In this document: piece after piece, positions 4,213 to 44,751 of the stretch | Position numbering within the stretch: position 1 is the stretch's first letter | Layout of the letters: every line of letters begins with the position of its first letter | From: an uncultured bacterium | GTDB taxonomy: Bacteria > Patescibacteriota > Minisyncoccia > UBA6257 > 2-01-FULL-56-20 | Reading direction: 5' to 3' | Length of the DNA: 64,000 nucleotides | NCBI GenBank assembly: GCA_963844965.1 | Contig: CAWJQC010000004.1 | Span: 128,001 to 192,000 of the forward strand | Made by a program: the position numbers and the translations under genes | The notes under the pieces: generated by a model | What the model saw: the letters and a program-made list of their open reading frames with translations, nothing else | What the model was told of the DNA's origin: nothing | Databases searched by the model: none

Positions 4213-4684
4213 CTAGCGCTTCGCCCACTGGGGAGCCCTTCGTGCTTTCTTTAAGCCGTATTTCTTTCTTTCCACCATGCGCGGGTCGCGGCGGAGGTAG
4301 CCGAGCTTACTCAGGCGCTTTTCAAAATCGGGGTTCTTCAGGGCGAGCGCGCGGGCAAGTCCCAAACGCACCGCCTCGGCTTGGGCATTGATGCCGCCGC
4401 CATAGACCTTAGCCGACACGTCATACTTGTCACCGAGCTTCATTTTCTCCAGCGGCGCGAAAGCCAGTAATATGCAAGCGCGACAGGTCAAAGTAATTCT
4501 TGTATCCTTCTTCGTTCACCAAAAACTTTCCGTGCCCGCCTAAAACTCGCACGCGCGCAATGGCGGTCTTTCTTCTTCCCACACCCTCAACGTATCTGTC
4601 CGGTTTTTTCACCGCCTTAACCGCGGAGACCTCTTTGGTTTCCTTCGTTTGGATCTTTTTTGCTGGTTCTTTCTTTGTTGGCAT
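4213..4684 (-). CDS. rpsI: 30S ribosomal protein S9, interrupted by an apparent 1-nt frameshift (~4450-4490)
   Basis: N-terminal ORF (GVGRRKTAIARVRVLGGHGKFLVNEEGYKNYF) and overlapping C-terminal ORF (PLEKMKLGDKYDVSAKVYGGGINAQAEAVRLGLARAL...RKKYGLKKARRAPQWAKR) together make a full S9. Confidence 0.8.
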
Positions 4685-4708
4685 TTAAATAATATATTGG
4701 TACCGCCG

Positions 4709-5055
4709 TTATTTATCAACGAAGATCAAATTCTTCAACCTTTTTTGATTCAGAAAATTTTTGGGCAGCATGTGGCGCACCGTTTCCCTGAGCGTTTTCT
4801 CCGGATCTTTGGTAAAAACCTGCTCAAAAGTCTTTTCTTTCAGGGTGCCCCATGTAGCCGGTATGGCGATAATAGATCTTCTCTTTGAACTTTTTTCCGG
4901 TAACAACGAGGATCCTTGCAATTTTTCACGTATACTTTGTCACCACCGACGAGCCGCCGCTCGTATTTCGGGCTTTTCTTACCCTGTAAAATCAAAGCTA
5001 TCTCCGAGGCCAGTCGCCCCAATATCTTGTTTTTGGCATCTATGTGATAATCCAC
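4709..5055 (-). CDS. rplM: 50S ribosomal protein L13, GTG start, interrupted by two apparent frameshifts (A5 run ~4923-4927 and C4 run ~4848-4851)
   Basis: Three frames carry consecutive L13 segments: IDAKNKILGRLASEIALILQGK..GDKVYVKN / IARILVVTGKKFKEKIYYRHTGYMG / GTLKEKTFEQ..RHMLPKNFLNQKRLKNLIFVDK. Confidence 0.8.
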
Positions 5056-5058: not shown

Positions 5059-5093
<35 letters not shown>

Positions 5094-5132
5094 TATATGT
5101 TTTATTCTATTTTCTAAATTCTAAATCCTTTA

Positions 5133-5486
5133 TTATACGAATTCCACGGCTGCCAGCCGCGAACCGTCCCTTTTTCTGGACTTTTGAAGTTTGATGATCC
5201 TGAGATATCCGCCGGCGCGCGCAGCGTAACGCGGACCCAGTTCTTCATAAATTTTATTGGCGATCCTCGGATTGTGCACGCGTTTCAAGATAAGGCGGCG
5301 TGCCGCCAAATTCTGTTTTTTCGCGATGGTGACGAGGCGCTCCACAACCGGCCTGATGGCCTTAGCTCTCGCCTCGGTAGTTTCAATTCGTCCCACCTTT
5401 ACCAAATCGTTCGCGAGATTGCGTAAAAAAGCACGCCTCTGTCCCCTTAACCTGTGAAATTTTTTCCCTTCTTTTAAATGTCTCAT
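5133..5486 (-). CDS. rplQ: 50S ribosomal protein L17
   Basis: 117 aa MRHLKEGKKFHRLRGQRRAFLRNLANDLV...; typical L17. Confidence 0.9.
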   Translation of the reverse strand: MRHLKEGKKFHRLRGQRRAFLRNLANDLVKVGRIETTEARAKAIRPVVERLVTIAKKQNLAARRLILKRVHNPRIANKIYEELGPRYAARAGGYLRIIKLQKSRKRDGSRLAAVEFV

Positions 5487-5490
5487 AAAC

Positions 5491-5524
5491 TAGAATCTAG
5501 AAAGTAGAATCTAGAAAGTAGAAG
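5491..5524. repeat. GTAGAAAG-type repeats interleaved with TCTAGAAT, upstream of the rplQ start
   Basis: tagaatctagaaagtagaatctagaaagtagaag begins 5 nt after the rplQ start codon (transcript sense upstream). Confidence 0.75.
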
Positions 5525-5569
5525 TCTTAGATTCTATTTTCTATTTTCCATTTTCTAGTTACGGCGCTA

Positions 5570-6337
5570 TTATGATTTCTTCGTTCTGCCGCGCTTCTTC
5601 GGCGCAGCTGCTTCGGCCTCAACTTTCGGCGCTGCGAATTCCTGGACGTTCAACGCCGAGACCTTCTCAAAATGATCTTTCAGGGCATTAGCCGATTTAT
5701 GCAAAGCCGACGACGGACTGATGGTTCCGTCGGTCTCTATCTCAACGCGCAAGCGGTTATAGTCGGTCCTGTCACCGACGCGCATGTTCTCAATTGAATA
5801 ATTGACCCTCTGCACCGGCGTGAAGATGGCGTCAATGGCTATGGTGCCGATGGAAAGCCGGCCTTCCTTCCGCGCCTCGACCGGCGAGTATCCGAGGCCG
5901 CGCTCCACCTTAACCTCCATATCAAGTTCAGCGTCTTTCGCTGTCAAGGTGGCTAGATAACTGTCCGGATTTACAAGTTCAACTTCCGAGCTCATTTTTA
6001 TCTCGCTGGCAGTCACGCCTTTCTCACCCTTTACCTTCAAGGTCAACACTTGTGGTTCATCGGTATGCATGCGGAATCTCAGTTTTTTGAAGTTCAGGCT
6101 TAGCTCTACCAGGTCCTCTTTGACTCCCGGCAAAGTTGAGAACTCATGGGGCGCGTTTTTGATCTTCAGTTCCGTAACGGCCGCGCCCGGCAGAGACGAG
6201 AGAAGCGCCCTTCGGAGCGCGTTGCCGACCGTAAGCCCGTAACCGGCGTATAATCCTTCAATCTCAAAAACGCCGTTTTTCGCGTCCTCGGAAACGGTTT
6301 TTATGGTAACGGTGGAACTTAAGTGAGAATGCTCCAT
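5570..6337 (-). CDS. rpoA: DNA-directed RNA polymerase alpha subunit, N-terminal domain only, with a Lys/Ala-rich tail
   Basis: 255 aa; alpha-NTD motifs (VFEIEGLYAGYGLTVGNALRRALLSS, GVTELKIK); ends AAPKVEAEAAAPKKRGRTKKS with no alpha-CTD; sits between rpsD and rplQ. Confidence 0.85.
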   Translation of the reverse strand: MEHSHLSSTVTIKTVSEDAKNGVFEIEGLYAGYGLTVGNALRRALLSSLPGAAVTELKIKNAPHEFSTLPGVKEDLVELSLNFKKLRFRMHTDEPQVLTLKVKGEKGVTASEIKMSSEVELVNPDSYLATLTAKDAELDMEVKVERGLGYSPVEARKEGRLSIGTIAIDAIFTPVQRVNYSIENMRVGDRTDYNRLRVEIETDGTISPSSALHKSANALKDHFEKVSALNVQEFAAPKVEAEAAAPKKRGRTKKS

Positions 6338-6353
6338 TGTTTTTTAATTATTG

Positions 6354-6959
6354 TTATTTGCTGAATGATTCGACCAATAAGTTGACATCAAACGGGGAGG
6401 TAGCCTCCGGAGGCGAAAGCACGCGCCCCTCCAATTTCTCTCTGTCCAAATGAAGCCACGCGGGCGGCTCGTATTTCTTGAGAATTTCGGCTCTCTTCTT
6501 TACCGCGTCAACGTCGCCCTGCGCAGTTATAACATCGCCAGCCTTGACCGAATACCCCGGCGATCTCACCCTGCGCTTGTTAACAAAAATATGGCCGTGG
6601 ACTATAAGCTGGCGCGCCGCTCCGCGCGAAGAAGCAAACCCAACCCTGTAAACCACGTTATCAAGCCGGCTCTCTAAAAATTCCACGATTTTCGCAGCCG
6701 AAGATCCTTTCGCTCTGACCGCCATCGCGAATATTCGCCTCAAATTACGCTCGTCCAAGCCGTAGCTCAACTTGAATTTCTTTTTTTCTTTGAGCTGCAA
6801 CCCGAATTCCGACAAACTCCTTCTTTGACGCTGCGGACCGTGAACGCCCGGCCGGTATGGCTTTCTCACAAAAGCACATTTTGGCGTGGAACAACGCTCG
6901 CCCTTCAGATTAAGGCGCTCGCCGACCGCTCTTTCTTTTTTTTCTTTGGGACCGATCAT
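6354..6959 (-). CDS. rpsD: 30S ribosomal protein S4
   Basis: 201 aa; S4 N-terminal zinc-ribbon-like region (CSTPKCAFVRKPYRPGVHG) and S4 domain (RLDNVVYRVGFASSRGAARQLIVHGHIFVNKRRV). Confidence 0.9.
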   Translation of the reverse strand: MIGPKEKKERAVGERLNLKGERCSTPKCAFVRKPYRPGVHGPQRQRRSLSEFGLQLKEKKKFKLSYGLDERNLRRIFAMAVRAKGSSAAKIVEFLESRLDNVVYRVGFASSRGAARQLIVHGHIFVNKRRVRSPGYSVKAGDVITAQGDVDAVKKRAEILKKYEPPAWLHLDREKLEGRVLSPPEATSPFDVNLLVESFSK

Positions 6960-6964
6960 AAACG

Positions 6965-6997
6965 TAAGTGTAAAGTTAAAAGTGTAAAGTGTAAAGT
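6965..6997. repeat. tandem octamer (GTGTAAAG/GTTAAAAG)x4 directly upstream of the rpsD start
   Basis: taagtgtaaagttaaaagtgtaaagtgtaaag; in transcript sense CTTTACAC repeats end ~8 nt before the ATG. Confidence 0.75.
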
Positions 6998-7029
6998 TTT
7001 TTGGCCATTTCCCATGTCGCTTTTCACAT

Positions 7030-7485
7030 TTATACTCGCCTCACTTTCGGCGGCCGGGGGCCGTTGTGCGGAATCGGCGTGACATCTTTTATGGAAAGGA
7101 CATCAAATCCCTGATTGATGAGAGACCTGATGGCGGAGTCACGACCGCCGCCTATCCCCTTCACGATTATCTCAACCTTGTTCGGACCGGTGTTCTTAAG
7201 CTTCTCCGCGATAACGGCAACAACTTTGGAAGAGGCGAAAGGTGTCGCTTTTTTCGGACCGGAAAAACCCAGGGCGCCCGCGGATGACCAGGCGAGCACG
7301 TCGCCCCGCGTATCCGTCACTGTCACGACCGTGTTGTTGTAAGACGCGTTAATGTAGACGCGGCCTTCTTCTGTTTTCTTGGATTTCTTGGCTGTCTGCG
7401 CGGCCTGCGGCGCTTGAGCCGCCGGGCTTTCTTTCCCGGTCTTAACTTCTTCAGCTGTTTGTTCTTTTATTTTTTTCTTACCCAT
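7030..7485 (-). CDS. rpsK: 30S ribosomal protein S11 with a Lys/Ala-rich N-terminal extension
   Basis: GRVYINASYNNTVVTVTDTRGDVLAWSSAGALGFSGPKKATPFA...GIGGGRDSAIRSL. Confidence 0.9.
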   Translation of the reverse strand: MGKKKIKEQTAEEVKTGKESPAAQAPQAAQTAKKSKKTEEGRVYINASYNNTVVTVTDTRGDVLAWSSAGALGFSGPKKATPFASSKVVAVIAEKLKNTGPNKVEIIVKGIGGGRDSAIRSLINQGFDVLSIKDVTPIPHNGPRPPKVRRV

Positions 7486-7487
7486 GT

Positions 7488-7871
7488 TTACTTCAATTCA
7501 ACTTTCCTCTTACCGCTGCCGGCGGTTCTCCGAACGTTTCCGCGGACGGTCCGCGAATTCGTGCGCGTCCGCTGTCCTCTTGAGGGCAGCCGCCGCAAGT
7601 GGCGCGAACCGCGATACGTCTTCAAGTCTTTTAACCTTTGGATATTTCTTTTTATAAGCTGGCGGAGTTCGCCTTCTATCGCGAAATTTTTTTCAACGAT
7701 ATTTTGGACGCGCGCAATCTCTTCGTTCGTGAGCGCGTTCGCCCTTTTATTCATGTCAACTTTGGCCGAACCCAAAATTTTCCGGCTCGCCGGCACGCCT
7801 ATGCCGTAAATATAAGTCAGCGCTATCTCAATTCTTTTATTATCTGGAATGTTAACGCCGAGAATGCGCAT
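7488..7871 (-). CDS. rpsM: 30S ribosomal protein S13
   Basis: MRILGVNIPDNKRIEIALTYIYGIG...KTYRGSRH. Confidence 0.9.
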   Translation of the reverse strand: MRILGVNIPDNKRIEIALTYIYGIGVPASRKILGSAKVDMNKRANALTNEEIARVQNIVEKNFAIEGELRQLIKRNIQRLKDLKTYRGSRHLRRLPSRGQRTRTNSRTVRGNVRRTAGSGKRKVELK

Positions 7872-7873
7872 GC

Positions 7874-7907
<34 letters not shown>

Positions 7908-8377: not shown

Positions 8378-8482
8378 AAATTGAATGACGCATATATCCT
8401 ATGTGTGGGGTGGCTCAACTCACAACTTATTATGTAGATTATAAGCGATAGGGAGTATATCTGTCAATGCCTTTTCGTAACC

Positions 8483-10195
8483 CTAATTTACCGTTATTTT
8501 CACATGATTCGGGTTCGCGGGCAGGCTCCAAAGCCAGATCGGCCAGAGTGAAACCTTCGCCGAAGCAAGGTGAGGCAATGCGGCGATTGCAGAGCGCACG
8601 TCGCTCACATTTTTGCCGAGAATGCTTGACTTGAAATCGTCGGCGGAGAAATCGGGTTTCAGATCGCCCGAGGCGGAAACGTCAAAAGTTTCTTTGCCAT
8701 TTTTAAAATCCACCTTTATCTGGCTGTAGTTGATCTGCGGATTGCCGTCAAAAACCATATTCGGGTTGCTCGCCGCCGCCGCCGCAGAAAGGAAAGAATC
8801 CAAACTTTTTTCTCCAGTCTCGCGGAAACACAGAACTAGAATATTTGCTTCTCCCAAGACGCTGAAACTGCCGCTCGCATTGGTATCTTCATCCACCTTC
8901 AGTTTCGTGACATTGAATTGCTCGGCGCCGTCCAAAACCTTGCAATCCGTCGGATAAGCGGCGGTAAGAGAATTATCAAGGGCGCTACGCAAGGCCGCAG
9001 TAGTTTTATCCTTGGCTTTCGCAATGTCGTCCGCGGTGGGCACCGCTTTTTCGCCGATGAAACCGCCGCTTGTCCCGCTCTTCAGTTCCCCGTAAAAACC
9101 GTCGTAGCGCGGTGAACCCTTGAAACCGGGGATAGTAAGCTTGGAAACCGGCCCGACATTGTATCCCTCGCCGGCAACGTCGGCTACCACGGTGGCATCT
9201 ATCGACGACGGTATGATATTGCCGTTATTGATTTGCGCGCCGGGAACAATCACGCTTGCCGGAATTCTGAAAATCTTGCCGTCTGGGGTCGCGAACCGCG
9301 TGGTTGCCACCAGTGTTTGGGGCGCTGAGCTGTAAGCGTTGTAGATAGTGATGGTTCCCTGCGCTTTTTGCGATACATCCTTATTTGAAGATGCTGGGTA
9401 AAGCTGAACGGTGTTCTTGGTATCGGTCACTATCCAGCCGGGCAGAATATTCTTGTTAAAATCAACGTTTGAAACGGACTTATCCGCCGAGAAAGCGTGC
9501 TCGTAACTCCACGGCGTCCTCGTAAAAGTTATCACTACGTCGGCTTTGTTGAAATAGTTGTTAACGATCAAAAAGATGGCGACGAGAATCAAAATCGAAA
9601 CTCCTATCAAGAGCACCGGTTTGAAAATTTTACGCCTCTGTTCCGCTGTTATGACGGGAATTCTACTAATCTTCCCAACGGCCGGCTCTTTCACGATCTT
9701 TTCCACCACAGCTTCCTGCTTAGGAGGCGCGCTTACCGGAGCTGCTTCTTTCTCGTAAAGCACGGCTGGGGGTTGCTCTTCTTTTTCTTTGCGGCCTCTT
9801 TTTGGCTGGATGGGCGCTTCCGGCTTATCTTCTTTCGAGCCGCGCGGAACTATGTCGGAAAGCGAAGAACTCTTGCGGTCTCCCTCAAAAAATGAATGGG
9901 TAGCGACGAGATTCGCGGACTTGGACAACGCCAGAATCTCATCGTCCACGGACTCCACAAAAACATTCTTGCCGCTCGCAGCGGCTTCCCTCCTTATTAA
10001 ATGAAAATTGCTCACAGACTCCTTGAGCCGTGAATTTTTCGGCACGACGAGCGTCAAATCCGTCTCTTCGTCGCCGATGATTTTTTCCACAACCTCCGCC
10101 ACGCCTTCGTTTTTGTCTATGAAAAGTTTTTTCACGGAGTATTCGCGAATAATGCGAATTTTGTTTGGATAGTAACCGCTAAAGCCGATTCGCAT
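8483..10195 (-). CDS. hypothetical membrane-anchored extracellular protein
   Basis: 570 aa; cytoplasmic N-terminal domain, one TM helix (VLLIGVSILILVAIFLIV), large extracellular domain. Confidence 0.6.
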   Translation of the reverse strand: MRIGFSGYYPNKIRIIREYSVKKLFIDKNEGVAEVVEKIIGDEETDLTLVVPKNSRLKESVSNFHLIRREAAASGKNVFVESVDDEILALSKSANLVATHSFFEGDRKSSSLSDIVPRGSKEDKPEAPIQPKRGRKEKEEQPPAVLYEKEAAPVSAPPKQEAVVEKIVKEPAVGKISRIPVITAEQRRKIFKPVLLIGVSILILVAIFLIVNNYFNKADVVITFTRTPWSYEHAFSADKSVSNVDFNKNILPGWIVTDTKNTVQLYPASSNKDVSQKAQGTITIYNAYSSAPQTLVATTRFATPDGKIFRIPASVIVPGAQINNGNIIPSSIDATVVADVAGEGYNVGPVSKLTIPGFKGSPRYDGFYGELKSGTSGGFIGEKAVPTADDIAKAKDKTTAALRSALDNSLTAAYPTDCKVLDGAEQFNVTKLKVDEDTNASGSFSVLGEANILVLCFRETGEKSLDSFLSAAAAASNPNMVFDGNPQINYSQIKVDFKNGKETFDVSASGDLKPDFSADDFKSSILGKNVSDVRSAIAALPHLASAKVSLWPIWLWSLPANPNHVKITVN

Positions 10196-15159: not shown

Positions 15160-15790
15160 ACTTGCGCTTGGCTTCGTAGTCACAGCCAGAAATCCCCTGT
15201 TTTCCAAGGAACTTTTGGCCGTGACTACGATTTACGATTTTCAATGTACGCCAACATTATACATCCAAATAGTCTATTTTGTCAATCACCGCGGGCTAAA
15301 GCCCGCGGCTTGTGTTCGGCTCCTGTTCCCACTGGTTTCTGATATATTCTCTCATCGCTTTTTCGTTTTGACGGCCAACGGTTTCGGCAAAGTAACCATC
15401 CTGCCACAAGCTGTCTCCCCAGAGGAATTCTTCCAGCTCGGGAAATTCTTTTCTGACAGCCCTGGACGTACCGCCTTTGAGATAAAACACCGCTTTGGCA
15501 ACCGTCAGGGTAGCAGGAATTTGAAGCAATAGATGGACATGGTCGGGCATTATCTGCGCTTCATGGATGAACCATTTATTCATCTTGGCGGCTTGAAAGA
15601 ACAATGTCTTGAGTCGCCCGACCATGTCCCCTCGCAGTATCGAGCGGCGGTACTTTGGGCAGAAAACAACGTGGTACAAACATCGCGTATAGCTGTGGTT
15701 GCTTGGCCAGAATCCAGAGGGCATTATCTTCATTATCGCACCGGCAGAAACCAGTGGGAACAGGCAAATAAGCCCTCCGCCCCTCGCTTC
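15160..15790. mobile_element. IS200/IS605-family insertion sequence (boundaries approximate)
   Basis: TnpA gene flanked by the perfect 18-bp inverted repeat tgttcccactggtttctg (15318-15335 and 15741-15758) and subterminal hairpins (cgtagtcacagcc...ggccgtgactacg; ccgcgggctaaagcccgcgg). Confidence 0.45.
15296..15733 (-). CDS. tnpA: IS200/IS605-family Y1 (HuH) transposase TnpA
   Basis: 145 aa; YHVVFCPKYRR, HuH motif MPDHVHLLLQIP, catalytic Tyr context REYIRNQ. Confidence 0.85.
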   Translation of the reverse strand: MKIMPSGFWPSNHSYTRCLYHVVFCPKYRRSILRGDMVGRLKTLFFQAAKMNKWFIHEAQIMPDHVHLLLQIPATLTVAKAVFYLKGGTSRAVRKEFPELEEFLWGDSLWQDGYFAETVGRQNEKAMREYIRNQWEQEPNTSRGL

Positions 15791-15997: not shown

Positions 15998-17209
15998 TTA
16001 TGTCAGGTTCTCAAAACCTTCTAGTGCCTTTGATTTCCCATGCTCCCTAATTTTCTCCAGCGCCTTCGCCTCAATCTGGCGGATGCGCTCGCGCGTGACG
16101 CCGAAGGCCTTTCCCACTTCTTCAAGCGTGTGGTTCACGCCATCGTCCAAGCCGAAACGCATCTTGAGAATTTTCTGTTCGCGCTCCGCGAGGTCCACCA
16201 GAATTTCCTTTATCAAATCGCGGAGCAGGGCGTGCGCGGCGAGCTGAGCCGGTGTTTGGTTCCGCTCGTCGGGGATGAAATCGGAGAGCGTGGAGTCCTC
16301 CTCGTCGCCGATGGGAGTTTCAATGGACAGAACCTCCTGCGAAATTTTTTGGATGTGCCGCACCTTGTCCACTTCCAACCCCATCTCGGCGGCGATTTCT
16401 TCCGCCAAGGGTTCACGCCCGAGTTCCTGGATCAGCTGGCGGCGCGCCTGCGTGTATTTGGAAATCGTCTCCACCATGTGCACCGGAATGCGCACCGTGC
16501 GCGACTGGTCGGCGAGTGCCCGCGTAATCGCCTGCCGAATCCACCACGTCGCATACGTTGAAAATTTGAAACCCTTGCGGTAATCAAATTTCTCCACGGC
16601 GCGCGAAAGCCCGATATTCCCCTCCTGTATCAAGTCAAGAATGGAGAGGTGCGGCGTGCGGTTCACGTAACGCTTGGCGATGGAAACCACGAGTCGCAGG
16701 TTGGCTTTCATAAGTTTCTGGCGGGCGTCTTCGTCCCCACGCTCGGCGCGCTTCGCCAATTCTTTTTCTTCTGCCTTAATTAAGAGCGGGGTCTTCCCTA
16801 TTTCCTTGAGATATATCTGAACCGCGTCCGGCACCTCTCCTTCCATCGCCAAGGCGTCGTCCAATTCTTTTTGGGCGAGTTCTTCCTTTGAAAAGCCGAC
16901 GAGTGCGCTTGTTTCTATGACTTTGATGCCGGCTTTTTCCAGACGGTCGTACACTTCATCCAAAAACGCCACGTCGTCTTCTATTTTCGGAAAGTAATAG
17001 AGAATCTCATTATCTGTCACAAAACCGCGCGGCTTCCCGCGTTCCAAAAGTTCCTTCAGGGATTCTTCGCGCGCCTCGGCCGCCGCCGCGGCTTTCCTGC
17101 CTAAACGGCGGGTCTTGCGCTTGGCTTTCTTCGGCTTCGCCGAAGACCGTCGTTCCCCCCTGTGCTTGCGGTACTTCCCGCGTTTTTTCCCGGACTTTTT
17201 ATTTTCCAT
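15998..17209 (-). CDS. rpoD: RNA polymerase sigma factor RpoD (sigma-70)
   Basis: Regions 2-4 conserved ([41 protein letters not shown]); ORF extends to 17257 but the likely start is MENKKSG at 17209. Confidence 0.9.
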
Positions 17210-17341
17210 AACTTTATCATAAAAAACTCCCAAAACTTCACACCATATACGAAGCAATTATGGACATTTTATTAATAGAATACAGGTGTTTCCATAATTT
17301 TTCAACCCAATCGCAGAAGTTAAATGAACAAGCGCGAAACA

Positions 17342-22145: not shown

Positions 22146-25100
22146 TTACGGCAATTGCGGGATCTGAAGATTCAGAGAAGGGCACATGAGCATGTTGATC
22201 CACCACCTCGTTGTCTTGTAGACGTAACCTGTGGCGATGGTGTTGCTCTTAAGACCGTGCGGTACCCACGGCTCAAGCACCTTAATGTTGTACTTCAACT
22301 GAAATTGTATCACGGCGTTGTACGTCAAACTTCCATAATATCCGGTGACGGGAAGGTTAATCCCCAAATTCTGATTTAGGAATTCCTGAAGTTTTTTCAC
22401 TTCACTTGGATCGTTGTTCGCTCCAAGCTTGATGTAATCTCTGAGGTACATGCCGCAGCTCACTGAAGCGCCGAGTACTTGTCCGCCTGTTTGTCCGCCC
22501 AAAAGCTGAATTGAATCATCGGCAGTCCCGATATCAGTATTGGTTACGGAGCGGTACTTAACATACACGGTCTCCGTACCCTGTGTGGACCCGATAACCC
22601 ACGGCTTAGTGGTAACGTACGGCTCCCATGTGGCGCCGGCGAAATCCGGAGTGTTGGAGAGTTCCATCGTGTACGCGCCTGTTCCGTAAAGGGACAGCGT
22701 CACGCTCGTGGTCGCGGTTGAAGGAGCTCCACTATCAATGGAGATGCTATATGCCGATCCACCGCCGCCACCCAAAACCGTAGAGCCTCCTCCGCCACCT
22801 CCGCCACCGCCTCCACCACAATTTGACGTGCAGGGTGCGGCTTGAACCGCAATCGAAACTGAAGACGAATTATTGGCGGGGTCATCTACAAGTGAATCCA
22901 ATTCCTTGATCGTCGCGGTATTTGTGAGCGTTGTCCCCGCAGTCTGCGGGAGAACCGTCACTGAAATAACGAGTGTTGCCGTGGCGTTCGGTGAGATTGT
23001 TCCGACGCTCCATCCGATGGTAGCGCCCATACTGGAAGTACCCTGTGATGAAGTTATGGAGTTTACGCTCAAGCCGATCGGGAGGATATCGTTTACTACA
23101 ACGTATGTGGAAGTCACGGAACCGAGGTCGGTCGCGGTTAGGGTATATGTTATCGTATCGCCGCCTTTCGGATTTGCATTATCCACCGTCTTTGTGATCG
23201 CGACGTCCGCCGTGTTATTTGCTATTGCCGTTGGCGTGAAGGTCACAGAGCATGTCGTGCTCGCGGAAAGCGTCCCTGCGCAACCGCTGGAAGTCGCAAC
23301 CACGTAGTTGGAACTCGCCGCCGTAACGCCATAGAGGTCATTTGTAGGAAGAACGAACAATCCCGTGCCGTTACCGGTGGACGTTGACTGCGTTGCGGAA
23401 GCCGTTGAATCCAAAACCGTGATCGTCGCGGTATCGCTCGCGTTGAGGCCGCTCACGGAAACCGAGAGTGTGCTTGTCGTGTTTAGGGCAGGCGATCCTC
23501 CGGTCCCCACCAATACAGTTGCGTCTGACGAATTGTTCCCCAAATTAGGATCGGTGGTTGAAGAATTCTCACCGACCGAAGCTGTATTGGTTATCGTCCC
23601 CGTGGCGTTCACCACTGCCGCGATCGCCAATGTCGCCGTAGAGCTCACAGGCATGTCGCCTATCATCCAGCTTCCTGTTGAACTCACGTAGCTTCCTTCG
23701 GAATTGGAAGAAGTGGCATTCAGGAAAGTGAGACCGGAAGGCAGAGTGTCGGTAGCTACTACGCCGGTTGACGTAGAAGGGCCGAGCGCCGTCACGGTAA
23801 GCGTATAGTGAACGGTGCCGCCTTCAACGGTTGAAGTCACGTCGGCCACTTTAGCGATGGAGATGTCGGCGGAAGGAATGGTTGAGGTGGGAGTCGGAAC
23901 CGGCGCGCCGCATGAAGAACCGGCTTCGGTCACGGTGAGCTTGTAAAGCAAACCGGCCGGATTTGACTGAGCCGTAGAGCTCGCCAGACCAAAGTTCGTC
24001 ACCGTAAGCGCCAGATGATTCACACCCTGGTGCACCGCGGATAACGCGTCAACGTGCCCCTCGTTCTCGAGGAAATAGTTGAATTCACCAGAGTTGAGAG
24101 CCACGTCCGTCCCATTCAGCGCCGCATCGTACGAATTATCTGCCGCGATATCAAGATGGGCCGCGAGAGGACCGCCAGTCACCATAAAGTCCTTAGTGAA
24201 TGTGAATGTCTGGTTATGCGCCGGGTCAGTCACGTAAGGCGTCGCCCAAATCCACGTCGCGCCAGGAATTGAGGCGGTCCAACGCGAATCGTAGGGCGTC
24301 GCGACGAGCGCCGCCGAGCTGCCGTTTACCATGTTCGTCGCATCGCTCACGATGACATCCGAACAAGTAGCAGCCGGCGCAGGCGTCGCGGTTATAGACG
24401 ATGTCGCATTGTTGTTTGTCGTGTTCGGATCGGTGGTTGAAGAATTCTCACCGACCGAAGCTGTATTGGTTATCGTCCCCGTGGCGTTCACCACTGCCGC
24501 GATCGCCAATGTCGCCGTAGAGCTCACAGGCATGTCGCCTATCATCCAGCTTCCTGTTGAACTCACGTAGCTTCCTTCGGAATTGGAAGAAGTGGCATTC
24601 AGGAAAGTGAGACCGGAAGGCAGAGTGTCGGTAGCTACTACGCCGGTTGACGTAGAAGGGCCGAGCGCCGTCACGGTAAGCGTATAGTGAACGGTGCCGC
24701 CTTCAACGGTTGAAGTCACGTCGGCCACTTTAGCGATGGAGATGTCGGCGGAAGGAATGGTTGAGGTGGGAGTGGAGGTTGAAATCGCGCCGAGGAACCG
24801 ATTGAGAACGATAAGCTGCCGCGTGGGCCGCGATGCCTCAAGATAGATGTCTCCGTCGGCGTTCGTATTCCTTAGACCATCGTTCGTCGGATCGTTGTCA
24901 AACAATTGCCCGCTGTAGGAGAAAAAATCGGATGTCGCATTTGCGGTAACTGTGTCCTGGTCGTTGTAAAGCGGCATTGCCCAGTTGTAGCTCGAGCTCG
25001 CAATCCGCTCCTCGCCATAGTAATAATGGCCAAGCGCGAGATTGTTGTAAGTCACGCACTGGGCGTTCGCCGCGGACGCGCCGAAAAGCTCTGCGTTCGC

Positions 25101-25670
25101 GGAAAGTGGGGTCGTGAAAACCGCGGTAGGCAGTAATCCTGCCGCAGCGGCCGTTGTTGAGGGCACGGAAACGAAGCCGGGAACCGTAAAGGTCTGCCCC
25201 GGAAACGCCGTGCCGTCCACGACCGTGCCGCTCGCATTCACAATCGCCTTGCAGACGCTTATAGACCCCGTCGTTGGCGCGGGAGGAACGAAGGTATCGG
25301 TGATGACGCAGGTCTTCGCGTCTTTTCTTTCCATCGTTCCCGAACAGTCAGCGGAAAAACCAGCAGTGTAATCCGAACTTGAAGCCTGACTAACGTGGTA
25401 CGTTCCGGTTCCCATTGAGACCAAGGTTCCGGAAGCGGAACCCTGGAACGTTGACGGAGAAGGATTGTCGCCGGAAACCATCACTGTAAAATCGGAGGCG
25501 GATTTGGTGCCGCCACCGGTGTTCACGACGTTCACGACAACTGTAAGCTTGGCGCAAGAATCAGAATCCTCGCCGCAACTGCATGCATATGTTTTTGTCG
25601 CCGCGAGGATCGCCGACCAGAGAAGAATTCCAGTAATAATCAGACCTGTAATCGCAATCTTTCTTTTCAT
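22146..25670 (-). CDS. giant surface protein (1174 aa): signal peptide, two DUF11-type repeat domains, poly-Gly linker, C-terminal peptidoglycan-binding domain
   Basis: The unit ADVTSTVEGGTVHYTLTVTALGPSTSTGVVATDTLPSGLTFLNATS...NTASVGENSSTTDPN occurs twice; CGGGGGGGGGGG run; C-terminal LQEFLNQNLGINLPVTGYYGSLTYNAVIQFQ matches the PG_binding_1 signature. Confidence 0.8.
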   Translation of the reverse strand: MKRKIAITGLIITGILLWSAILAATKTYACSCGEDSDSCAKLTVVVNVVNTGGGTKSASDFTVMVSGDNPSPSTFQGSASGTLVSMGTGTYHVSQASSSDYTAGFSADCSGTMERKDAKTCVITDTFVPPAPTTGSISVCKAIVNASGTVVDGTAFPGQTFTVPGFVSVPSTTAAAAGLLPTAVFTTPLSANAELFGASAANAQCVTYNNLALGHYYYGEERIASSSYNWAMPLYNDQDTVTANATSDFFSYSGQLFDNDPTNDGLRNTNADGDIYLEASRPTRQLIVLNRFLGAISTSTPTSTIPSADISIAKVADVTSTVEGGTVHYTLTVTALGPSTSTGVVATDTLPSGLTFLNATSSNSEGSYVSSTGSWMIGDMPVSSTATLAIAAVVNATGTITNTASVGENSSTTDPNTTNNNATSSITATPAPAATCSDVIVSDATNMVNGSSAALVATPYDSRWTASIPGATWIWATPYVTDPAHNQTFTFTKDFMVTGGPLAAHLDIAADNSYDAALNGTDVALNSGEFNYFLENEGHVDALSAVHQGVNHLALTVTNFGLASSTAQSNPAGLLYKLTVTEAGSSCGAPVPTPTSTIPSADISIAKVADVTSTVEGGTVHYTLTVTALGPSTSTGVVATDTLPSGLTFLNATSSNSEGSYVSSTGSWMIGDMPVSSTATLAIAAVVNATGTITNTASVGENSSTTDPNLGNNSSDATVLVGTGGSPALNTTSTLSVSVSGLNASDTATITVLDSTASATQSTSTGNGTGLFVLPTNDLYGVTAASSNYVVATSSGCAGTLSASTTCSVTFTPTAIANNTADVAITKTVDNANPKGGDTITYTLTATDLGSVTSTYVVVNDILPIGLSVNSITSSQGTSSMGATIGWSVGTISPNATATLVISVTVLPQTAGTTLTNTATIKELDSLVDDPANNSSSVSIAVQAAPCTSNCGGGGGGGGGGGSTVLGGGGGSAYSISIDSGAPSTATTSVTLSLYGTGAYTMELSNTPDFAGATWEPYVTTKPWVIGSTQGTETVYVKYRSVTNTDIGTADDSIQLLGGQTGGQVLGASVSCGMYLRDYIKLGANNDPSEVKKLQEFLNQNLGINLPVTGYYGSLTYNAVIQFQLKYNIKVLEPWVPHGLKSNTIATGYVYKTTRWWINMLMCPSLNLQIPQLP
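23548..23894. repeat. ~347-bp direct repeat inside the giant surface-protein gene (copy 1)
   Basis: Near-identical to 24427-24774; encodes the duplicated DUF11 repeat. Confidence 0.85.
24427..24774. repeat. ~347-bp direct repeat inside the giant surface-protein gene (copy 2)
   Basis: Near-identical to 23548-23894. Confidence 0.85.
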
Positions 25671-33733: not shown

Positions 33734-34492
33734 ATGCCGCATACGCCGACGACAACGACAATAATCGTGGGCGCGCTCATGGTCATCGCCACCGCGCTTT
33801 TTTGCGTCGCGGCTTATTTTGTCATCAAATACGCGCTCCGCTTCGTCGGAAAAATGTTCAGCTTCGTAAACGAGGTGGCAAACATCGTCAGGGAAAGGAA
33901 AGACCGGTATCTTGTTGGGCCGGTTTGGGGATGGGACATACAAGACCGGATAGAAGAATGGGACAAGCCGGACGAGGAGTGGTCGGTTATGGTCGAAGGA
34001 GCGGCGGGATACGGCGAAGAATTTTTGGAGCGCGTCGCTCGCCGCGCGCTTGACGAAAACATTCCCCGGCTTGTGGTGAGAAAGCGGATTGTCTGGCCGT
34101 ATCTGCGCCGAAAATGGCAACCGGTTCTTGTGATAACCAACAAGAAAATAAAGGGCTATCAAATGCTGATTGACGCGACAGACTACACCGACCGCCTTGA
34201 TGTTTGGTGGCGAGTTGATAAAGGCGACCGCGACCAACTGCCCTTGAGAGGGGCGGAAATACGGGAAAAGAGATTCGGGCTCGATTCGTCGGGCGTTCTT
34301 GAAGCCCAAGCCCAACAAGAGAAAAACTGGGTATTTCCCGAACAGATGACCGCTCTCGACAAGCAGGAGTGGGACAACTGCACTGGTTTGGTGCGCGATA
34401 TTGTCAGAGCCGAGGTAAAACGGATGGCGGACGAAGTTCGTATCGGCGGCGGCGTGGCTGGCGGCGCGAAGGGATTTATTGACATCAACTAA
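33734..34492 (+). CDS. membrane-anchored hypothetical protein, 14-nt overlap with the downstream T4CP-like ATPase
   Basis: N-terminal TM helix IIVGALMVIATALFCVAAYFVI; translationally coupled to the next gene. Confidence 0.55.
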   Translation: MPHTPTTTTIIVGALMVIATALFCVAAYFVIKYALRFVGKMFSFVNEVANIVRERKDRYLVGPVWGWDIQDRIEEWDKPDEEWSVMVEGAAGYGEEFLERVARRALDENIPRLVVRKRIVWPYLRRKWQPVLVITNKKIKGYQMLIDATDYTDRLDVWWRVDKGDRDQLPLRGAEIREKRFGLDSSGVLEAQAQQEKNWVFPEQMTALDKQEWDNCTGLVRDIVRAEVKRMADEVRIGGGVAGGAKGFIDIN

Positions 34493-36071
34493 CTATGAAA
34501 AACGGATTTTTAAAAACAATTTTGGACTGGATACTGGACTGGCGTTATCCGCTCCCGCCCCCGCCGGAGCCGGACTTGCCTCTTTTTCCGAGCAGTCGGA
34601 GGAACCGATGGCGGACAAATTCAAACTGCCGAGGCCCAACGAGCTTGTTCTCGGCAGTACGACAACCAAAGGGCCGGACGGCAAGGCAGAAGGCAAGACA
34701 AAGGGCGTGTCGCAGGACGACCGCTCGACCCATTTTTACGTGGTGGGAGCGACCGGCACGGGCAAGACGAAATTTTTGGAAACCCTAATCTTGCAGGACG
34801 CGATGAACGCGCACGGCTTTGGCATCGTGGACGCGCAGGGCGATTTGACGGAAGACATCAAGAGCTATCTTTTCATTCTTACCTTCCCAAACGAACCGGA
34901 GGAAACCGCCGAATTTGAAAAAGATTCGGAAAAAGCCCTCAAAAAAATTAAAAGATTTTTGAGCGAACGCGTCGTGCTGATAGACCCGTCCGACAGGGAA
35001 AGAACTGTTTGCTTTAATCCGCTTGAAAAAGTGGAGGGGCTTTCGCCCGCCGGAATCGCGAGCGAAGCAGTGGAGGCGTTCAAGAAAATCTGGCATGACG
35101 CTTGGGGCGCGAGAATGGAAGACCTGCTCAAAAATTCTCTGATAGCCCTCGTCGAGAACGACCTCACCCTCGCCGAACTTCCCCTGTTTCTTTCCGACAT
35201 CGGGGCGAGAAAAAAGATTCTGAAAAAAGTCATCCATCCCGTCTGCCGCCAGTATTTTGAAAAGTTCAATTCTTTGAGGTCGTCGTTGCAGGACGAGTGG
35301 GCGGAATCAACTCTGAACAAGGCCCGCGCCTTCATGTCCAACGACCACGTGCGGCAGATGCTCTCGGCGGTTAAAAGCACTTTCAACTTCCGCGACATAA
35401 TGGACGACCGGAAAATTCTGCTGGTGAAGCTGAATCGCGGAAAATTGAAGGGCGACGCCGACCTGCTCGGCTCTTTGCTTCTCTCCAAAATCCAGATGGC
35501 CGCCTTTTCTCGGACGGACGTTCCGCAATCCGAACGCGTGCCGTTTTATCTTTACATCGATGAGTTTCAGAATTTTGCGACCGAGAGTTTTATCCAAACG
35601 CTCGCCGAAGCGAGAAAGTATGGCCTGTCGATTACGCTGGCTCATCAGAATCTCGCCCAGCTACCGCCGTCCCTGCGGGCGTCGATACTCTCCAACTGCG
35701 GCTTGCAGGCGTACTTCCGCATCTCGCGCGACGACGCGAACATGCTAGCTAGGGAATCTCTCGCTTCCGTTTACGAAGAGCCGCCCGGCTGGGAGTTTTA
35801 CGTCCGCTCGCTTCAAGAACTGCCGAGGCGCGAGTGCGTGATAAAACATAAAATCGCGGGAGGCGTGATTGCCGTCCACACCATCGGACTGCCTACCCCT
35901 TGGGAATGGGCGAAGATGGACGAAAAGAAATTCTCGGAGGGACTGGCCGCGATGAATACCGGCGGCGCGTACATGCGCAAGCGCGAGGACATAGAGAAAG
36001 AATATCGGTCGAGGCAAGAGGCCCTCCGATTTATGGACGAGCCGGAGAGTTTCTGGGAGCGGAAGGTTTAA
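34479..36071 (+). CDS. VirD4/TraG/TraD-like type IV coupling-protein-type ATPase (soluble domain only)
   Basis: Walker A VVGATGTGKTKF; Walker B YLYIDEFQNFATE; ARKYGLSITLAHQNLAQL motif characteristic of T4CP/TraD-like ATPases. Confidence 0.65.
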   Translation: MTSTNYEKRIFKNNFGLDTGLALSAPAPAGAGLASFSEQSEEPMADKFKLPRPNELVLGSTTTKGPDGKAEGKTKGVSQDDRSTHFYVVGATGTGKTKFLETLILQDAMNAHGFGIVDAQGDLTEDIKSYLFILTFPNEPEETAEFEKDSEKALKKIKRFLSERVVLIDPSDRERTVCFNPLEKVEGLSPAGIASEAVEAFKKIWHDAWGARMEDLLKNSLIALVENDLTLAELPLFLSDIGARKKILKKVIHPVCRQYFEKFNSLRSSLQDEWAESTLNKARAFMSNDHVRQMLSAVKSTFNFRDIMDDRKILLVKLNRGKLKGDADLLGSLLLSKIQMAAFSRTDVPQSERVPFYLYIDEFQNFATESFIQTLAEARKYGLSITLAHQNLAQLPPSLRASILSNCGLQAYFRISRDDANMLARESLASVYEEPPGWEFYVRSLQELPRRECVIKHKIAGGVIAVHTIGLPTPWEWAKMDEKKFSEGLAAMNTGGAYMRKREDIEKEYRSRQEALRFMDEPESFWERKV

Positions 36072-37995: not shown

Positions 37996-38140
37996 CATAA
38001 CACAACTTAAAGGTTTTTTATTCACCGAACAATGGGCTTCCACAATGGAAGCCCATTGTTTTTCCGCAAAACCGCGCGCTTCGCGCGCGTGGAGTGTCAG
38101 GTTCAATCCGAAAATTTTTTGAGCGAACGATTTTTTGAGG
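37996..38140 (-). repeat. near-identical duplicate of the last ~140 nt of the 43135 recombinase gene (att-like junction with IR-R)
   Basis: Reverse complement matches 44515-44650, then switches at gttatg|gag into IR sequence instead of tRNA-Gly. Confidence 0.75.
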
Positions 38141-38244
38141 GGTAAGGGGGTCGCAGATAAAGATATAATGCTTGCCCCGCCCTTCCCGTGCGCGCATTAT
38201 GTATTTTTGCCGATTTTGAAATCGGCAACTCCCTTATAACGATT

Positions 38245-40950
38245 TTACCTTTTCAGACCATATTTCTGTTCTCGTTTCTGGAAAGCTTCTGTGCCGCCCT
38301 CAAGAACGTCATAGATTGTCTTCCGCATCTCTATATTCTCTAACGAACCTTGTAGGGCATTAACCTTACTTTTATCATCAACGGATAAAGCAGTTATCAA
38401 TTCTGAATCGCCCAAGACAACGATATTGGCGTTATGGGTGCAAATAATTATCTGCCTGTTCACTTTTTGCTCTCTAACCAAAGTTACTACCTTCTCTGCT
38501 ACGAATTTTGCGTCAAGGTGATCCTCCGGCTGGTCAATGATAAGTGGATGGTCGCCAGACAACAATATAAGTTCCACCAAAGTGCCGCATCGCTCGCCGA
38601 ACGACATACTATCTTTGCCGAGTATTTTAGTTCCATATTTAATGTGATTTTCTCCGGTTTCCGCATATTCATCTAGCCGCATTATTAGGTCTTCTCTAAT
38701 AATTTGAGTATTCGGGTCTTCAAAAAACCACCGCAGAGTTTCTGTCTTTCCGCTACTATCTTGTAATTTTGGTATTCTATTTTCTTTAATAGTGGAAATT
38801 ATCTTTTCCCTTGCGACATCACCAGTAGCTTTGCCGACAAGTTCGTTTATTACATCTTTAACGTAATCCTCTCTGACGGGAGATTTTATCTTAAAATTCT
38901 TTTCAATGACACCCTTTAACTCGTCGTTTGATTGGAGGAACTGCTCCTTTATCCACGGAGCAATATCACCACTTGGATCGTCCCATACGGCAGTGATTGT
39001 TGTATCCTTAAAAGATTCGTTGAACCCGCCAATAAGTTTTTGGTTTTCCTTTATCCAGAGTTTTAGTTTTGCCGCCAGTTGATTCACGAGTTGGCTGTGT
39101 TGTTTCTTATCGCCTTCAAACTTTTTTAGGCGATTTTCAAGTTGCGATGATTGCTGGTCAATAAACTTAATTCTGTTGTTTCGCTTTTCTACCTCACTCT
39201 TTGTTATAGTAACGCCGTTTAGCTTACAGTAATCGGTAAACTGCTTTGTAAGTTCTGCGCTTTCTCTATCCAGTTCTTTTTTTACATCGGATTCTCTTAC
39301 TTCCTTTACTGCTCCTTCTAAATTCTTAACTACGGAATCCAGTTGAGATTCTTTTAGGTTATAAAAATCTTCAATTTTTTTCTTTAGCGCATTTTTCTCC
39401 GCAAAAAGTTCTAAAACTTTATCTTTATCAACAGTAGTAGAAAGTTTAAGTTGCCCTGCGAATTTTTTAATGAGGACGGCTTGGGCTTCAATATCTTGGA
39501 TCAAGCCATCAATCAACTGGCGTTTGGCTCTATTGCTTTTAATTTTTTCGGCAAGGTCTTTATATTCTTTTGTTTTTAACTTCTTAAAGTAAGATTCAAT
39601 TTGTTCTCGTTCCGCTTCAAGTTTCTTTTTGTCTATTTCTACTTGGAGTTTATCGGCGTAACTGTTACGGGTAGTTTCCATTTCTACAGCCAACGCCTCT
39701 ATTTCCTCTTTTGTCTTAATGAGTAGATCGGAATGAAGACGGCCTCCTATGTAATCCGCTATCTGTTTTGGGCTATCGGCTTTTTTCTCAATTTCTCCTT
39801 GTGTCCAGTATTCAACTTGAAAGGACGAAGTATAAAATGGGTCATTCCACTCTTTGACTTGACGCTTTAGAGATACTGGGTCTTCTGCTCCACTTTGAAA
39901 GATAACCTCAACTTCAAGATTGGGGAACTCCCTACTCAAAAATTCAATTAAGGAAAGTTTTTTGTCGCCTTTATCGGATGAAAACTTGTTAGCTACATAT
40001 CCAATCAATTCTGCTAAAGCGGTCTTTCCGGCGGCTCGTGGCCCGATAACCGTGGTTAAATTCGGACTAAAAAACAGTTCTTGATTTAGAGTAATTGGTG
40101 GAAATATACTTCTCTTTGATTGATAACTTTGATGATTTAGCAATTTTGCGGATACAATCTGCGGATGAAGATAAAGTGGCGGACTATCATCAAGACAAAC
40201 TCTAATAACTGGCTCATAAATAATTTGTTTCAAACCTTCAAATGTTGGATCGGCCTTAATCCAACTATACTTCTTACCAATTACTTCCGTTGAGTGGCCG
40301 CTTTTGTATTGAAGTTTTGATCTATCGCAAGCGTCGGAAGTAATAATACACGGAAACTCCTGTTTAATCTTTGGGAACACTATTTTTCTGTAATCCTCAA
40401 CCTGTTTTATGGCCGATACTTCAAAAATATCAACCAAAAACGCTAAATCTTTTTTTAGTGTCGCACGGACATCACTATCCAATTGTTCTATCCCGTTGGA
40501 CTTGTTACCCGCGTGGAGTAAAACAAGCCCGTCTAACTCGTGTATTTTTTGACACGCGTCTTCAAAGTTACAGTAAATCTCCTTATCCCCCTTACCCTTA
40601 ATATCGTTTTCCGAAAAATTAAGAGGGCAGAGTAATTTATCGTAAATAGTTTTTGAAGTAGTGGAAGAATCAAAAACTCCGATAATATGTATCCCTTTAT
40701 TGCCCTTATCGGTGCGCAGTTCAACGCCGGGGAGAATTGTTATATCTTTTCCTTTAGCAGCTTTTAGAACCTCGTCAATTCCTTTAACGGTATGGTGGTC
40801 TGTAATAGCAATAACAGATATATTTTCTGTTATTGCCTTTTTCACTATGTCTTCCGCTTTGTCTTTACAGCCACTATCCCAATCATAAGAAGACGGGGTA
40901 TGAACGTGCAAATCCCACTTTCTCCAAATTGAACCGCGGGGTGAATTCAT
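38245..40950 (-). CDS. PHP-domain phosphoesterase fused to an SMC/SbcC-like ABC ATPase with a long coiled-coil insert (901 aa)
   Basis: PHP motifs WDLHVHTPSSYD and VIAITDHH; Walker A GPRAAGKT; ~350-aa coiled coil; signature-like MSFGERCGTLVELIL; Walker B LIIDQPEDHLD; H-loop IICTHNANI; start codon 6 nt after the MTase stop. Confidence 0.75.
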   Translation of the reverse strand: MNSPRGSIWRKWDLHVHTPSSYDWDSGCKDKAEDIVKKAITENISVIAITDHHTVKGIDEVLKAAKGKDITILPGVELRTDKGNKGIHIIGVFDSSTTSKTIYDKLLCPLNFSENDIKGKGDKEIYCNFEDACQKIHELDGLVLLHAGNKSNGIEQLDSDVRATLKKDLAFLVDIFEVSAIKQVEDYRKIVFPKIKQEFPCIITSDACDRSKLQYKSGHSTEVIGKKYSWIKADPTFEGLKQIIYEPVIRVCLDDSPPLYLHPQIVSAKLLNHQSYQSKRSIFPPITLNQELFFSPNLTTVIGPRAAGKTALAELIGYVANKFSSDKGDKKLSLIEFLSREFPNLEVEVIFQSGAEDPVSLKRQVKEWNDPFYTSSFQVEYWTQGEIEKKADSPKQIADYIGGRLHSDLLIKTKEEIEALAVEMETTRNSYADKLQVEIDKKKLEAEREQIESYFKKLKTKEYKDLAEKIKSNRAKRQLIDGLIQDIEAQAVLIKKFAGQLKLSTTVDKDKVLELFAEKNALKKKIEDFYNLKESQLDSVVKNLEGAVKEVRESDVKKELDRESAELTKQFTDYCKLNGVTITKSEVEKRNNRIKFIDQQSSQLENRLKKFEGDKKQHSQLVNQLAAKLKLWIKENQKLIGGFNESFKDTTITAVWDDPSGDIAPWIKEQFLQSNDELKGVIEKNFKIKSPVREDYVKDVINELVGKATGDVAREKIISTIKENRIPKLQDSSGKTETLRWFFEDPNTQIIREDLIMRLDEYAETGENHIKYGTKILGKDSMSFGERCGTLVELILLSGDHPLIIDQPEDHLDAKFVAEKVVTLVREQKVNRQIIICTHNANIVVLGDSELITALSVDDKSKVNALQGSLENIEMRKTIYDVLEGGTEAFQKREQKYGLKR

Positions 40951-40956
40951 AAATTA

Positions 40957-42072: not shown

Positions 42073-42078
42073 ATAAAA

Positions 42079-42861: not shown

Positions 42862-42865
42862 GGTT

Positions 42866-43078
42866 TTATTTTATTAAGTCATCAACTGCGACATTTAGGG
42901 CTTTGGCTATTTTCGCCAAAGTTTCTATTGTCGGATTCTTATTAACACCCGATTCAATTTTAATCATGGTGTTATAGGTAACATCCGCCAATTTGGACAA
43001 ACGATCTTGTGAAATGCCGAGTTTACTACGGTATTTTTTGATATTCTCGGCAATCCTTGATTTGTTGCTTGCTCCCAT
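42866..43078 (-). CDS. XRE-family HTH controller (C) protein of the R-M operon
   Basis: 70 aa; KKYRSKLGISQDRLSKLADVTYNTMIKIESGVNKNPTIETLAKIAKAL; first gene of the operon, 4 nt before the REase. Confidence 0.7.
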   Translation of the reverse strand: MGASNKSRIAENIKKYRSKLGISQDRLSKLADVTYNTMIKIESGVNKNPTIETLAKIAKALNVAVDDLIK

Positions 43079-43134
43079 AGTAATATAGTAGTATGATTGA
43101 ACTAATAGCGAGTGATTTTGTTTAATCTATTACT
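43079..43134. promoter_or_regulatory. divergent control region between the C-protein gene and the recombinase gene; contains inverted repeats (candidate C-box)
   Basis: ccatagtaata...tattactatgg 11-bp inverted repeat spanning the 56-bp intergenic region. Confidence 0.35.
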
Positions 43135-44739: not shown

Positions 44740-44751
44740 GTCCTTCTTTGG

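Follow-up and report, generated by a model that had tools for sequence, protein, structure and literature searches.

The C-terminal domain (CTD) of the alpha subunit of bacterial RNA polymerase (RNAP) recognizes UP elements, and class I activators dock to it. In the enzyme of Escherichia coli the N-terminal domain (NTD) of alpha lies on the upstream face, and a flexible linker lets the CTD reach the DNA upstream of the -35 element. Subunit D of the archaeal RNAP and the eukaryotic subunits Rpb3 and AC40 are homologues of the alpha-NTD, which serve as assembly platform and are naturally devoid of an alpha-CTD.

[quoted passage not shown] It has been described for Hodgkinia and Tremblaya and has been cited for Euglena plastids, and a single sentence of the same article mentions it for Parcubacteria (PMC8321222). 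The study that this article cites for Parcubacteria, Nelson and Stegen 2015 (PMC4508563), is silent on the alpha subunit and on RNA polymerase in its main text. Because of the one-sentence mention for Parcubacteria (PMC8321222), CTD loss itself is not new.

Short peptides that contact DNA are known from other proteins. CarD of Myxococcus xanthus has been described as a combination of an RNAP-binding domain (CarD_CdnL_TRCF) with HMGA-type AT-hooks (PMC4374960, PMC2919716). The core of the HMGA AT-hook is RGRP, and H-NS and Lsr2 contact the minor groove with Q/RGR(TP); in the H-NS family the full motif reads TW(S/T)G(Q/R)GRTP, and RGR(T) is the "AT-hook-like" core of Lsr2 and the H-NS family (PMC4466236). 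The gene that is analyzed here, rpoA of an uncultured member of the Patescibacteria (CPR) of the Paceibacteria/Parcubacteria type, encodes an alpha subunit that lacks the CTD and ends with a basic peptide. The term "window" denotes the whole stretch of 64 kb of DNA that was analyzed.

Results

An intact rpoA gene in the alpha operon

The rpoA gene is intact and is situated within a conserved rpsM-rpsK-rpsD-rpoA-rplQ operon (Table 1). The genes for S13, S11, S4, alpha, and L17 follow one another without interruption on the minus strand, from position 7871 to position 5133, as is typical for the alpha operon, and the order of the larger cluster is infA, rpsM, rpsK, rpsD, rpoA, rplQ, and then rplM and rpsI. 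A preceding interpretation of the letters and open reading frames, called the sequence-only reading in the following, had placed rpsD behind the rpoA stop codon, after a gap of 16 nt. This order has to be reversed, because on the minus strand rpsD is the upstream neighbor, and it is rplQ that follows downstream after 83 nt. A perfect TTGACA-N18-TATAAT promoter is found upstream of infA (8438-8467, minus strand).

Table 1. Positions of rpoA, of the parts of its product, and of the neighboring features in the window
Feature	Positions	Strand	Basis or remark
infA	8377-8159	minus	
rpsM (S13)	7871-7488	minus	
rpsK (S11)	7485-7030	minus	
rpsD (S4), 5' neighbor of rpoA	6354..6959	minus	PF00163 + PF01479
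Gap from rpsD stop to rpoA start, 16 nt	6338-6353	minus	
rpoA CDS	5570..6337	minus	255 codons + stop; ATG-to-stop ORF; product without CTD
Alpha N-terminal domain, residues 1-227	5657..6337	minus	Pfam, AlphaFold2, Foldseek
Linker, residues 228-244, ALNVQEFAAPKVEAEAA	5606..5656	minus	Composition, alignment, pLDDT
Basic C-terminal end, residues 245-255, APKKRGRTKKS	5573..5605	minus	Sequence, alignment
rpoA stop codon	5570-5572	minus	
rpoA-rplQ spacer, 83 nt	5487..5569	minus	AT-rich imperfect hairpin
rplQ (L17), 3' neighbor of rpoA	5133..5486	minus	PF01196, E = 5.8e-30

A complete N-terminal domain with a disordered tail

The rpoA product has a length of 255 aa, and its C-terminal sequence is AAPKVEAEAAAPKKRGRTKKS. 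Pfam detected PF01000 at residues 58-173 (E = 8.6e-30) and PF01193 at residues 31-223 (E = 1.1e-22), and no match to PF03118, the family of the alpha-CTD, was obtained at a threshold as lenient as E<=1. With NCBIfam the curated equivalog threshold for RpoA was passed (TIGR02027, 245.6 bits versus a cutoff of 227.8), the PRK05182 sub-models scored below their own cutoffs because the C-terminal third is missing, and a weak match to the archaeal subunit D was obtained (NF001988, E = 2.7e-6). Alpha subunits in the PDB matched with E values down to 1e-57, and the identity to the solved alphas is 45-50%. Both with the solved alphas (305-368 residues) and with the NCBIfam rpoA models (298-344 positions), the alignment was confined to the query residues ~1-247. 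One database protein (P0001) is 100% identical to the rpoA product.

An AlphaFold2 model, which was built with 42 homologues, is confident up to the last helix (residues 208-227). The pLDDT drops to 60 and then to 36 in the linker, and residues 238-255 are disordered (pLDDT<50). Foldseek found the model to resemble the alpha-NTD chains of many RNA polymerase structures, with a target-normalised TM-score of up to 0.87. The protein is a two-part alpha, composed of a complete N-terminal domain and a disordered tail of ~28 residues that ends in a Lys/Arg cluster. The N-terminal domain would be responsible for dimerisation and would be the scaffold for beta and beta', i.e., the assembly platform of the enzyme. 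The sequence-only reading had proposed that the gene encodes the alpha-NTD only, with a basic tail at the site where linker and CTD are expected to start, and this is borne out by the Pfam, NCBIfam, and PDB alignments.

Distribution of the short alpha subunit

The short form was found in all of the best 120 matches (73-100% identity) from a collection of 5.8 billion proteins. These homologues have 252-276 aa, they contain the NTD Pfam families only and lack a CTD, and the named members belong to the Patescibacteria, Paceibacterota, or Minisyncoccia. In addition, 80 loci were taken from species-representative genomes, and 48 of them encode a short alpha (Paceibacteria, Parcubacteria, Liptonbacteria, and Minisyncoccales); a CTD is present in 31 of the 79 compared sequences. 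Other Patescibacteria have kept the domain, namely, Giovannonibacteria (L055), Portnoybacteria (L033), and genomes that use genetic code 25 (L040, L041, L060, and L064). The nearest 150 representatives of clusters formed at 50% identity include 97 proteins with and 53 without a CTD; about 30 of the latter are intact short alphas with basic ends, and some are fragments or frameshifted. The gene rplQ begins 1-120 nt after the short rpoA in 22 of the 48 loci, including that on a complete chromosome (L003), which is a count of the loci in which the search pattern located rplQ, the other 26 being loci in which the pattern did not locate it.

As all close relatives are short, the short alpha is a trait of the lineage and not a peculiarity of one genome. 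The NTD is intact, the CTD is absent, and this combination is common to the lineage rather than a lesion of a single genome. The alpha-CTD has been cleanly deleted, and the deletion is fixed in a large and diverse set of relatives. The sequence-only reading had suggested an alignment with related RpoA proteins and had counted a short form shared by close relatives among the findings that would refute it, as the truncation would then simply be a lineage trait; the best 120 homologues and the 48 loci show that this is the case. With a short form that is clade-wide and already present in the literature, CTD loss as such is ordinary for this lineage. In a neighbor-joining tree of the NTD alone the short forms fell into two or more clades, with L066 apart from these, and such a tree of one protein is too weak for counting CTD losses, be it a single loss or multiple losses.

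Several candidates for aberrant forms had to be discarded or treated with caution. Seemingly extreme truncations, i.e., three alphas of 220 aa (L041, L060, and L064) and an ORF of 28 aa (L040), turned out to be artefacts of translation with table 11; in table 25 (UGA = Gly) all four proteins have 309-311 aa and a normal CTD. The four records are titled "uncultured Candidatus Saccharibacteria", yet their rpoA genes need code 25. The four genomes probably belong to Gracilibacteria or Absconditabacteria, and the titles are unreliable for taxonomy. L025 was rejected as a short form, as its assembly is frameshifted. In three of the cluster representatives, P0121 (569 aa), P0123 (526 aa), and P0159 (664 aa), the alpha-NTD is matched twice or at a great distance from the N-terminus; tandem or fused alpha genes are possible explanations, as are mis-called ORFs.

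A conserved basic terminus related to the AT-hook

Of the last 28 residues of the window protein, 7 are Ala, 5 are Lys, and 2 are Arg, in accordance with the Lys/Ala-rich tail of the sequence-only reading. The last 11 residues (APKKRGRTKKS) have a net charge of +6, and the linker of ~17 residues has a net charge of -2. The terminal basic cluster is conserved far above the genome background, for which 67 ORFs of the window were used: at least six Lys or Arg within the last 20 residues are present in 117 of the 120 homologues and in 47 of the 48 short genome loci, versus 9 of the 67 window ORFs. In alignment A1 the residues K247, K253, and K254 are conserved to at least 90%, and most tail positions from E233 to K247 have no majority residue, i.e., the linker is variable among relatives.

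The motif RGRP occurs in 30 of the 120 best homologues, including most of those with more than 82% identity, as PKKRGRPKK with basic flanks. It is also present in two of the 48 short genome loci, and most short alphas have plain Lys-rich ends without RGRP. The exact sequence K(K/R)RGRPKK forms the extreme C-terminus in L009, L066, P0154, and P0214. L009 belongs to clade A, like the window protein, to which it is 74% identical. The NTDs of L066, P0154, and P0214 are 44-53% identical to that of the window and to one another, which is no higher than their identity with CTD-bearing alphas, and the linkers in front of the four AT-hooks are unrelated, acidic, and 20-55 residues long. The preservation of an octapeptide over that distance, beside a freely drifting linker, suggests that the hook itself is under selection. 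It would have been kept over a very long time, or have arisen more than once.

The AT-hook core R-G-R-P is absent from the window tail, which contains R-G-R-T. The Thr is encoded by ACG, one nucleotide away from a Pro codon, which is presumably the codon of the relatives. The surroundings resemble those of an AT-hook: in PKK-RGRT-KKS the core is flanked by Lys or Arg and is part of the disordered segment. The Pfam model AT_hook (PF02178) did not match the window tail. The relatives with RGRP scored 9.0-9.5 bits (E = 1.4-1.9), below the gathering cutoff of 17.4 bits, which a single hook rarely reaches because the model has only 13 positions. The window tail was therefore not classified as a formal AT-hook, given its RGRT core, the missing Pfam match, and the scores of the relatives below the cutoff; it may be viewed as a degenerate, weakened version of the hook. 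The motif scan of the other window proteins yielded only weak KRGRK-type matches, in a 570-aa ORF (8483-10195) and at the N-terminus of a 996-aa ORF (48459-51449), and no genome-wide AT-hook pattern. In the open-access literature no paper was found that links the AT-hook to RpoA or to CPR bacteria, and in the searchable literature no description of an alpha C-terminal tail was found. The conserved AT-hook or basic terminus is apparently an undescribed variant, and it suggests a testable mechanism.

Intergenic elements and further features of the window

The rpoA-rplQ spacer (5487-5569) contains an inverted repeat with arms of 29 nt that are 79% complementary, and its RNA is predicted to fold with -24.3 kcal/mol (z = -3.95). 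The hairpin is made of short tandem units. Equally strong hairpins of unrelated sequence are found at the same site in several relatives, including L001, L007, L009, L015, L016, and L018, and in other relatives the spacer has a length of just 1-30 nt. Processing, attenuation, or a terminator-like function are possibilities for this element. The rpsK-rpsD spacer contains another short-repeat intergenic element of the same operon, i.e., tandem 14-nt units similar to AAGTGTAAAGT (6966-6993).

A block with a GC content of 39% (38000-44800) stands out from the window with its ~50% GC. Within it lie a PHP/SMC-like ORF of 901 aa and two others, its flanks encode an HTH_3 protein of 70 aa and a large serine recombinase (43135-44739), and it is probably an integrated mobile element or a defence island. 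The window also encodes a type IV coupling protein of the TrwB/TraG type (34479-36071) and a DUF11-repeat protein of 1174 aa with a peptidoglycan-binding domain (22146-25670), which are surface and DNA-uptake genes typical of Patescibacteria.

Discussion

Possible function of the tail

Our best reading, which we regard as rather probable, is that the tail makes a tethered minor-groove or electrostatic contact with DNA, which would replace UP-element binding. As the NTD of canonical alphas lies on the upstream face and their linker is flexible, the cationic tip of a disordered 28-residue tail should have access to the same DNA. An alpha dimer has two such tails, and each of them would be a tethered contact to the DNA immediately upstream of the -35 element. 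With an RGRP or RGR core this contact would be directed to the minor groove and would prefer AT, and with only lysines left it would be mainly electrostatic. The tail would add affinity and would be a minimal substitute for the UP-element binding and the non-specific upstream DNA binding of the alpha-CTD. Class I activation via protein contacts of the alpha-CTD would be lost in the lineage, and regulation would have to operate via contacts to sigma or core, or by repression. A DNA contact of the basic tail had been put forward in the sequence-only reading. The canonical AT-hook of many relatives strengthens this idea, which is still a proposal drawn from sequence. It is possible rather than probable that a large part of the Patescibacteria carries, in place of the folded alpha-CTD, one flexibly linked AT-hook or basic peptide, so that each polymerase would have two minor-groove readers, a minimal version of the UP-element reader for AT-rich DNA upstream of -35.

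Alternatively, the tail might be the remnant of a Lys-rich interdomain linker that was left behind when the CTD was deleted in the course of genome streamlining, and that was kept for solubility or charge balance or is not under selection. The alpha subunit would then have no contact to upstream DNA, and the sigma-promoter contacts alone would operate. The interdomain linkers of the CTD-bearing Patescibacteria L024, L026, L033, and L058 are Lys-rich just after the NTD, and the tail could therefore be a leftover linker. Most short forms end with low-complexity, Lys-rich sequences without RGRP, and the tails of a few CTD-less representatives are acidic (P0172, P0178, and P0245). Lys-rich extensions are common in the genome and occur on other nucleic-acid-binding proteins (S11, S9, and the N-terminus of sigma), and thus part of the tail signal may be a lineage-wide habit. 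Furthermore, a scan of the 64-kb window revealed only eight consensus-like promoters, which have no consistent AT-rich stretch upstream of -35 (AT fraction 0.24-0.72) and no clear UP-like AT tract, a result that says little about an UP-element signature. However, the basic cluster is always found at the extreme C-terminus, past a non-basic linker, whereas linkers of the L024 type are basic directly after the NTD. The exact KKRGRPKK recurs at NTD identities of at most 53% together with unrelated linkers, which would not be expected of neutral remnants, and the high content of basic residues at the end is kept in nearly all of the best 120 homologues. We consider it unlikely that the tail is nothing but such a remnant, and in part it may be a linker that was kept and has hardly any specific role.

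The primary sigma factor of the window (15998-17257, minus strand) contains regions 1.1, 1.2, 2, 3, and 4. An extremely basic N-terminal extension of ~45 residues, with KKRGK and RGER motifs, precedes region 1.1. It may be a second DNA-contacting basic tail of the same polymerase, and it may belong to the strategy that would have put a basic peptide in the place of the alpha-CTD, in which peptide-DNA contacts would replace protein-protein activation surfaces that these regulator-poor organisms no longer use. Downstream of the sigma gene a perfect TTGACA-N18-TATAAT promoter is present (15256-15285, minus strand), which is preceded by a GC-rich hairpin.

The search for a separate CTD and the integrity of the gene

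The sequence-only reading had left room for a CTD that is encoded elsewhere. In such a split rpoA the product of the separate gene would join the polymerase or would act alone. A CTD profile was derived from 27 full-length alphas and was used for an unfiltered search of the 64-kb window at maximum sensitivity, with every six-frame ORF from 30 aa upward as a target. There was no significant match in the window; the best one (E = 0.022) comprises 21 residues within ribosomal protein S13. Nothing positive speaks for a split gene in the searched window, which is part of a contig of at least 216 kb. Moreover, a free CTD would not be tethered to the NTD, and the clade-wide basic or AT-hook tail argues that the short alpha is the finished product. 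On the basis of the 64-kb window and of the conserved tail, a separately encoded CTD is very improbable.

Due to the length of the spacer there is no room for a CTD of ~80 residues between the rpoA stop codon and rplQ. A Logan contig (L081), an independent assembly from run ERR10755942, is identical to window positions 5067-7903 with the exception of one mismatch outside rpoA, and rpoA is identical in both assemblies. This comparison mattered because apparent frameshifts exist nearby: on the minus strand (4213-5055) rplM (L13) occupies three different reading frames and rpsI (S9) occupies two, and the N- and C-terminal halves of each Pfam family fall in separate ORFs. These apparent frameshifts are assembly indels or real lesions; the Logan contig does not reach rplM, as it stops at 5067 and the start codon, at 5055, lies 12 nt further downstream. 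A frameshift or read-through that would restore the CTD is ruled out by the AT-rich hairpin spacer of only 83 nt and the identical independent assembly, and in this respect the sequence-only reading, which had seen no frameshift that extends the ORF, was right. That the truncation is an assembly or sequencing error of the metagenome-assembled genome (MAG), such as an indel or a premature stop, for which only the rplM and rpsI frameshifts within 1.4 kb downstream speak, is effectively refuted and essentially excluded by the identical rpoA in the Logan assembly, the non-coding, hairpin-forming spacer, and the same length class of the best 120 homologues, which stem from many samples and assemblers.

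Implications

A whole environmental radiation without an alpha-CTD means that the domain is dispensable in nature also outside of degenerate endosymbionts. Models of promoter strength and regulation that were developed with E. coli and Bacillus cannot be transferred to CTD-less Patescibacteria. Should the conserved AT-hook or basic tail indeed contact upstream DNA, no smaller functional stand-in for a DNA-binding domain of a polymerase would be known. For annotation it follows that short rpoA calls in MAGs of Patescibacteria should not be flagged as truncated genes or pseudogenes.

Comparison with known systems

The short alpha shares an orthologous NTD (PF01193, PF01000, and TIGR02027) and the position between rpsD and rplQ with the canonical alpha, RpoA of E. 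coli. It also shares the same logic, i.e., a folded assembly domain with a flexibly tethered C-terminal element. However, the canonical element is a helix-hairpin-helix CTD of ~80 aa (PF03118), which the short alpha lacks, and the short alpha tethers a basic peptide of ~11 residues instead of a folded domain, so that there is no surface for class I activators. The 265-determinant, a feature of the E. coli alpha-CTD, has no counterpart in the short alpha. Compared to the archaeal subunit D and to Rpb3 and AC40, the rpoA product is clearly of the bacterial alpha type, as indicated by TIGR02027 and the bacterial operon context, and its dimer is presumably a homodimer, in contrast to the D/L heterodimer.

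The alphas of Hodgkinia, Tremblaya, and Euglena plastids have likewise kept the NTD and lost the CTD, and they too belong to small genomes. In contrast to the handful of degenerating endosymbionts, the loss in Patescibacteria is fixed across a large and diverse environmental radiation. A further difference is the conserved basic or AT-hook terminus of the patescibacterial short alpha, which is unmentioned in PMC8321222.

With HMGA-type hooks the relatives have the R-G-R-P core, the Lys/Arg flanks, and the location in a disordered segment in common, at Pfam AT_hook scores below the cutoff. The R-G-R-T of the window agrees in all four residues with the "RGRT" of the H-NS family, and it is followed by Lys, not by Pro. 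In H-NS and Lsr2 the motif is part of a loop of a folded domain (PMC4466236), whereas the RGRT of the window is located in a tail that is predicted to be free.

The closest functional analogue is CarD of M. xanthus. Both would unite an RNAP-bound module, an acidic or variable stretch, and RGRP AT-hooks that contact DNA near promoters, and L066, P0154, and P0214 have a CarD-like layout of NTD, acidic linker, and KKRGRPKK. There is no sequence homology between CarD and the short alpha. As an accessory factor, CarD binds to the beta subunit and has several AT-hooks, whereas the short alphas carry one hook per core subunit, and thus two per enzyme.
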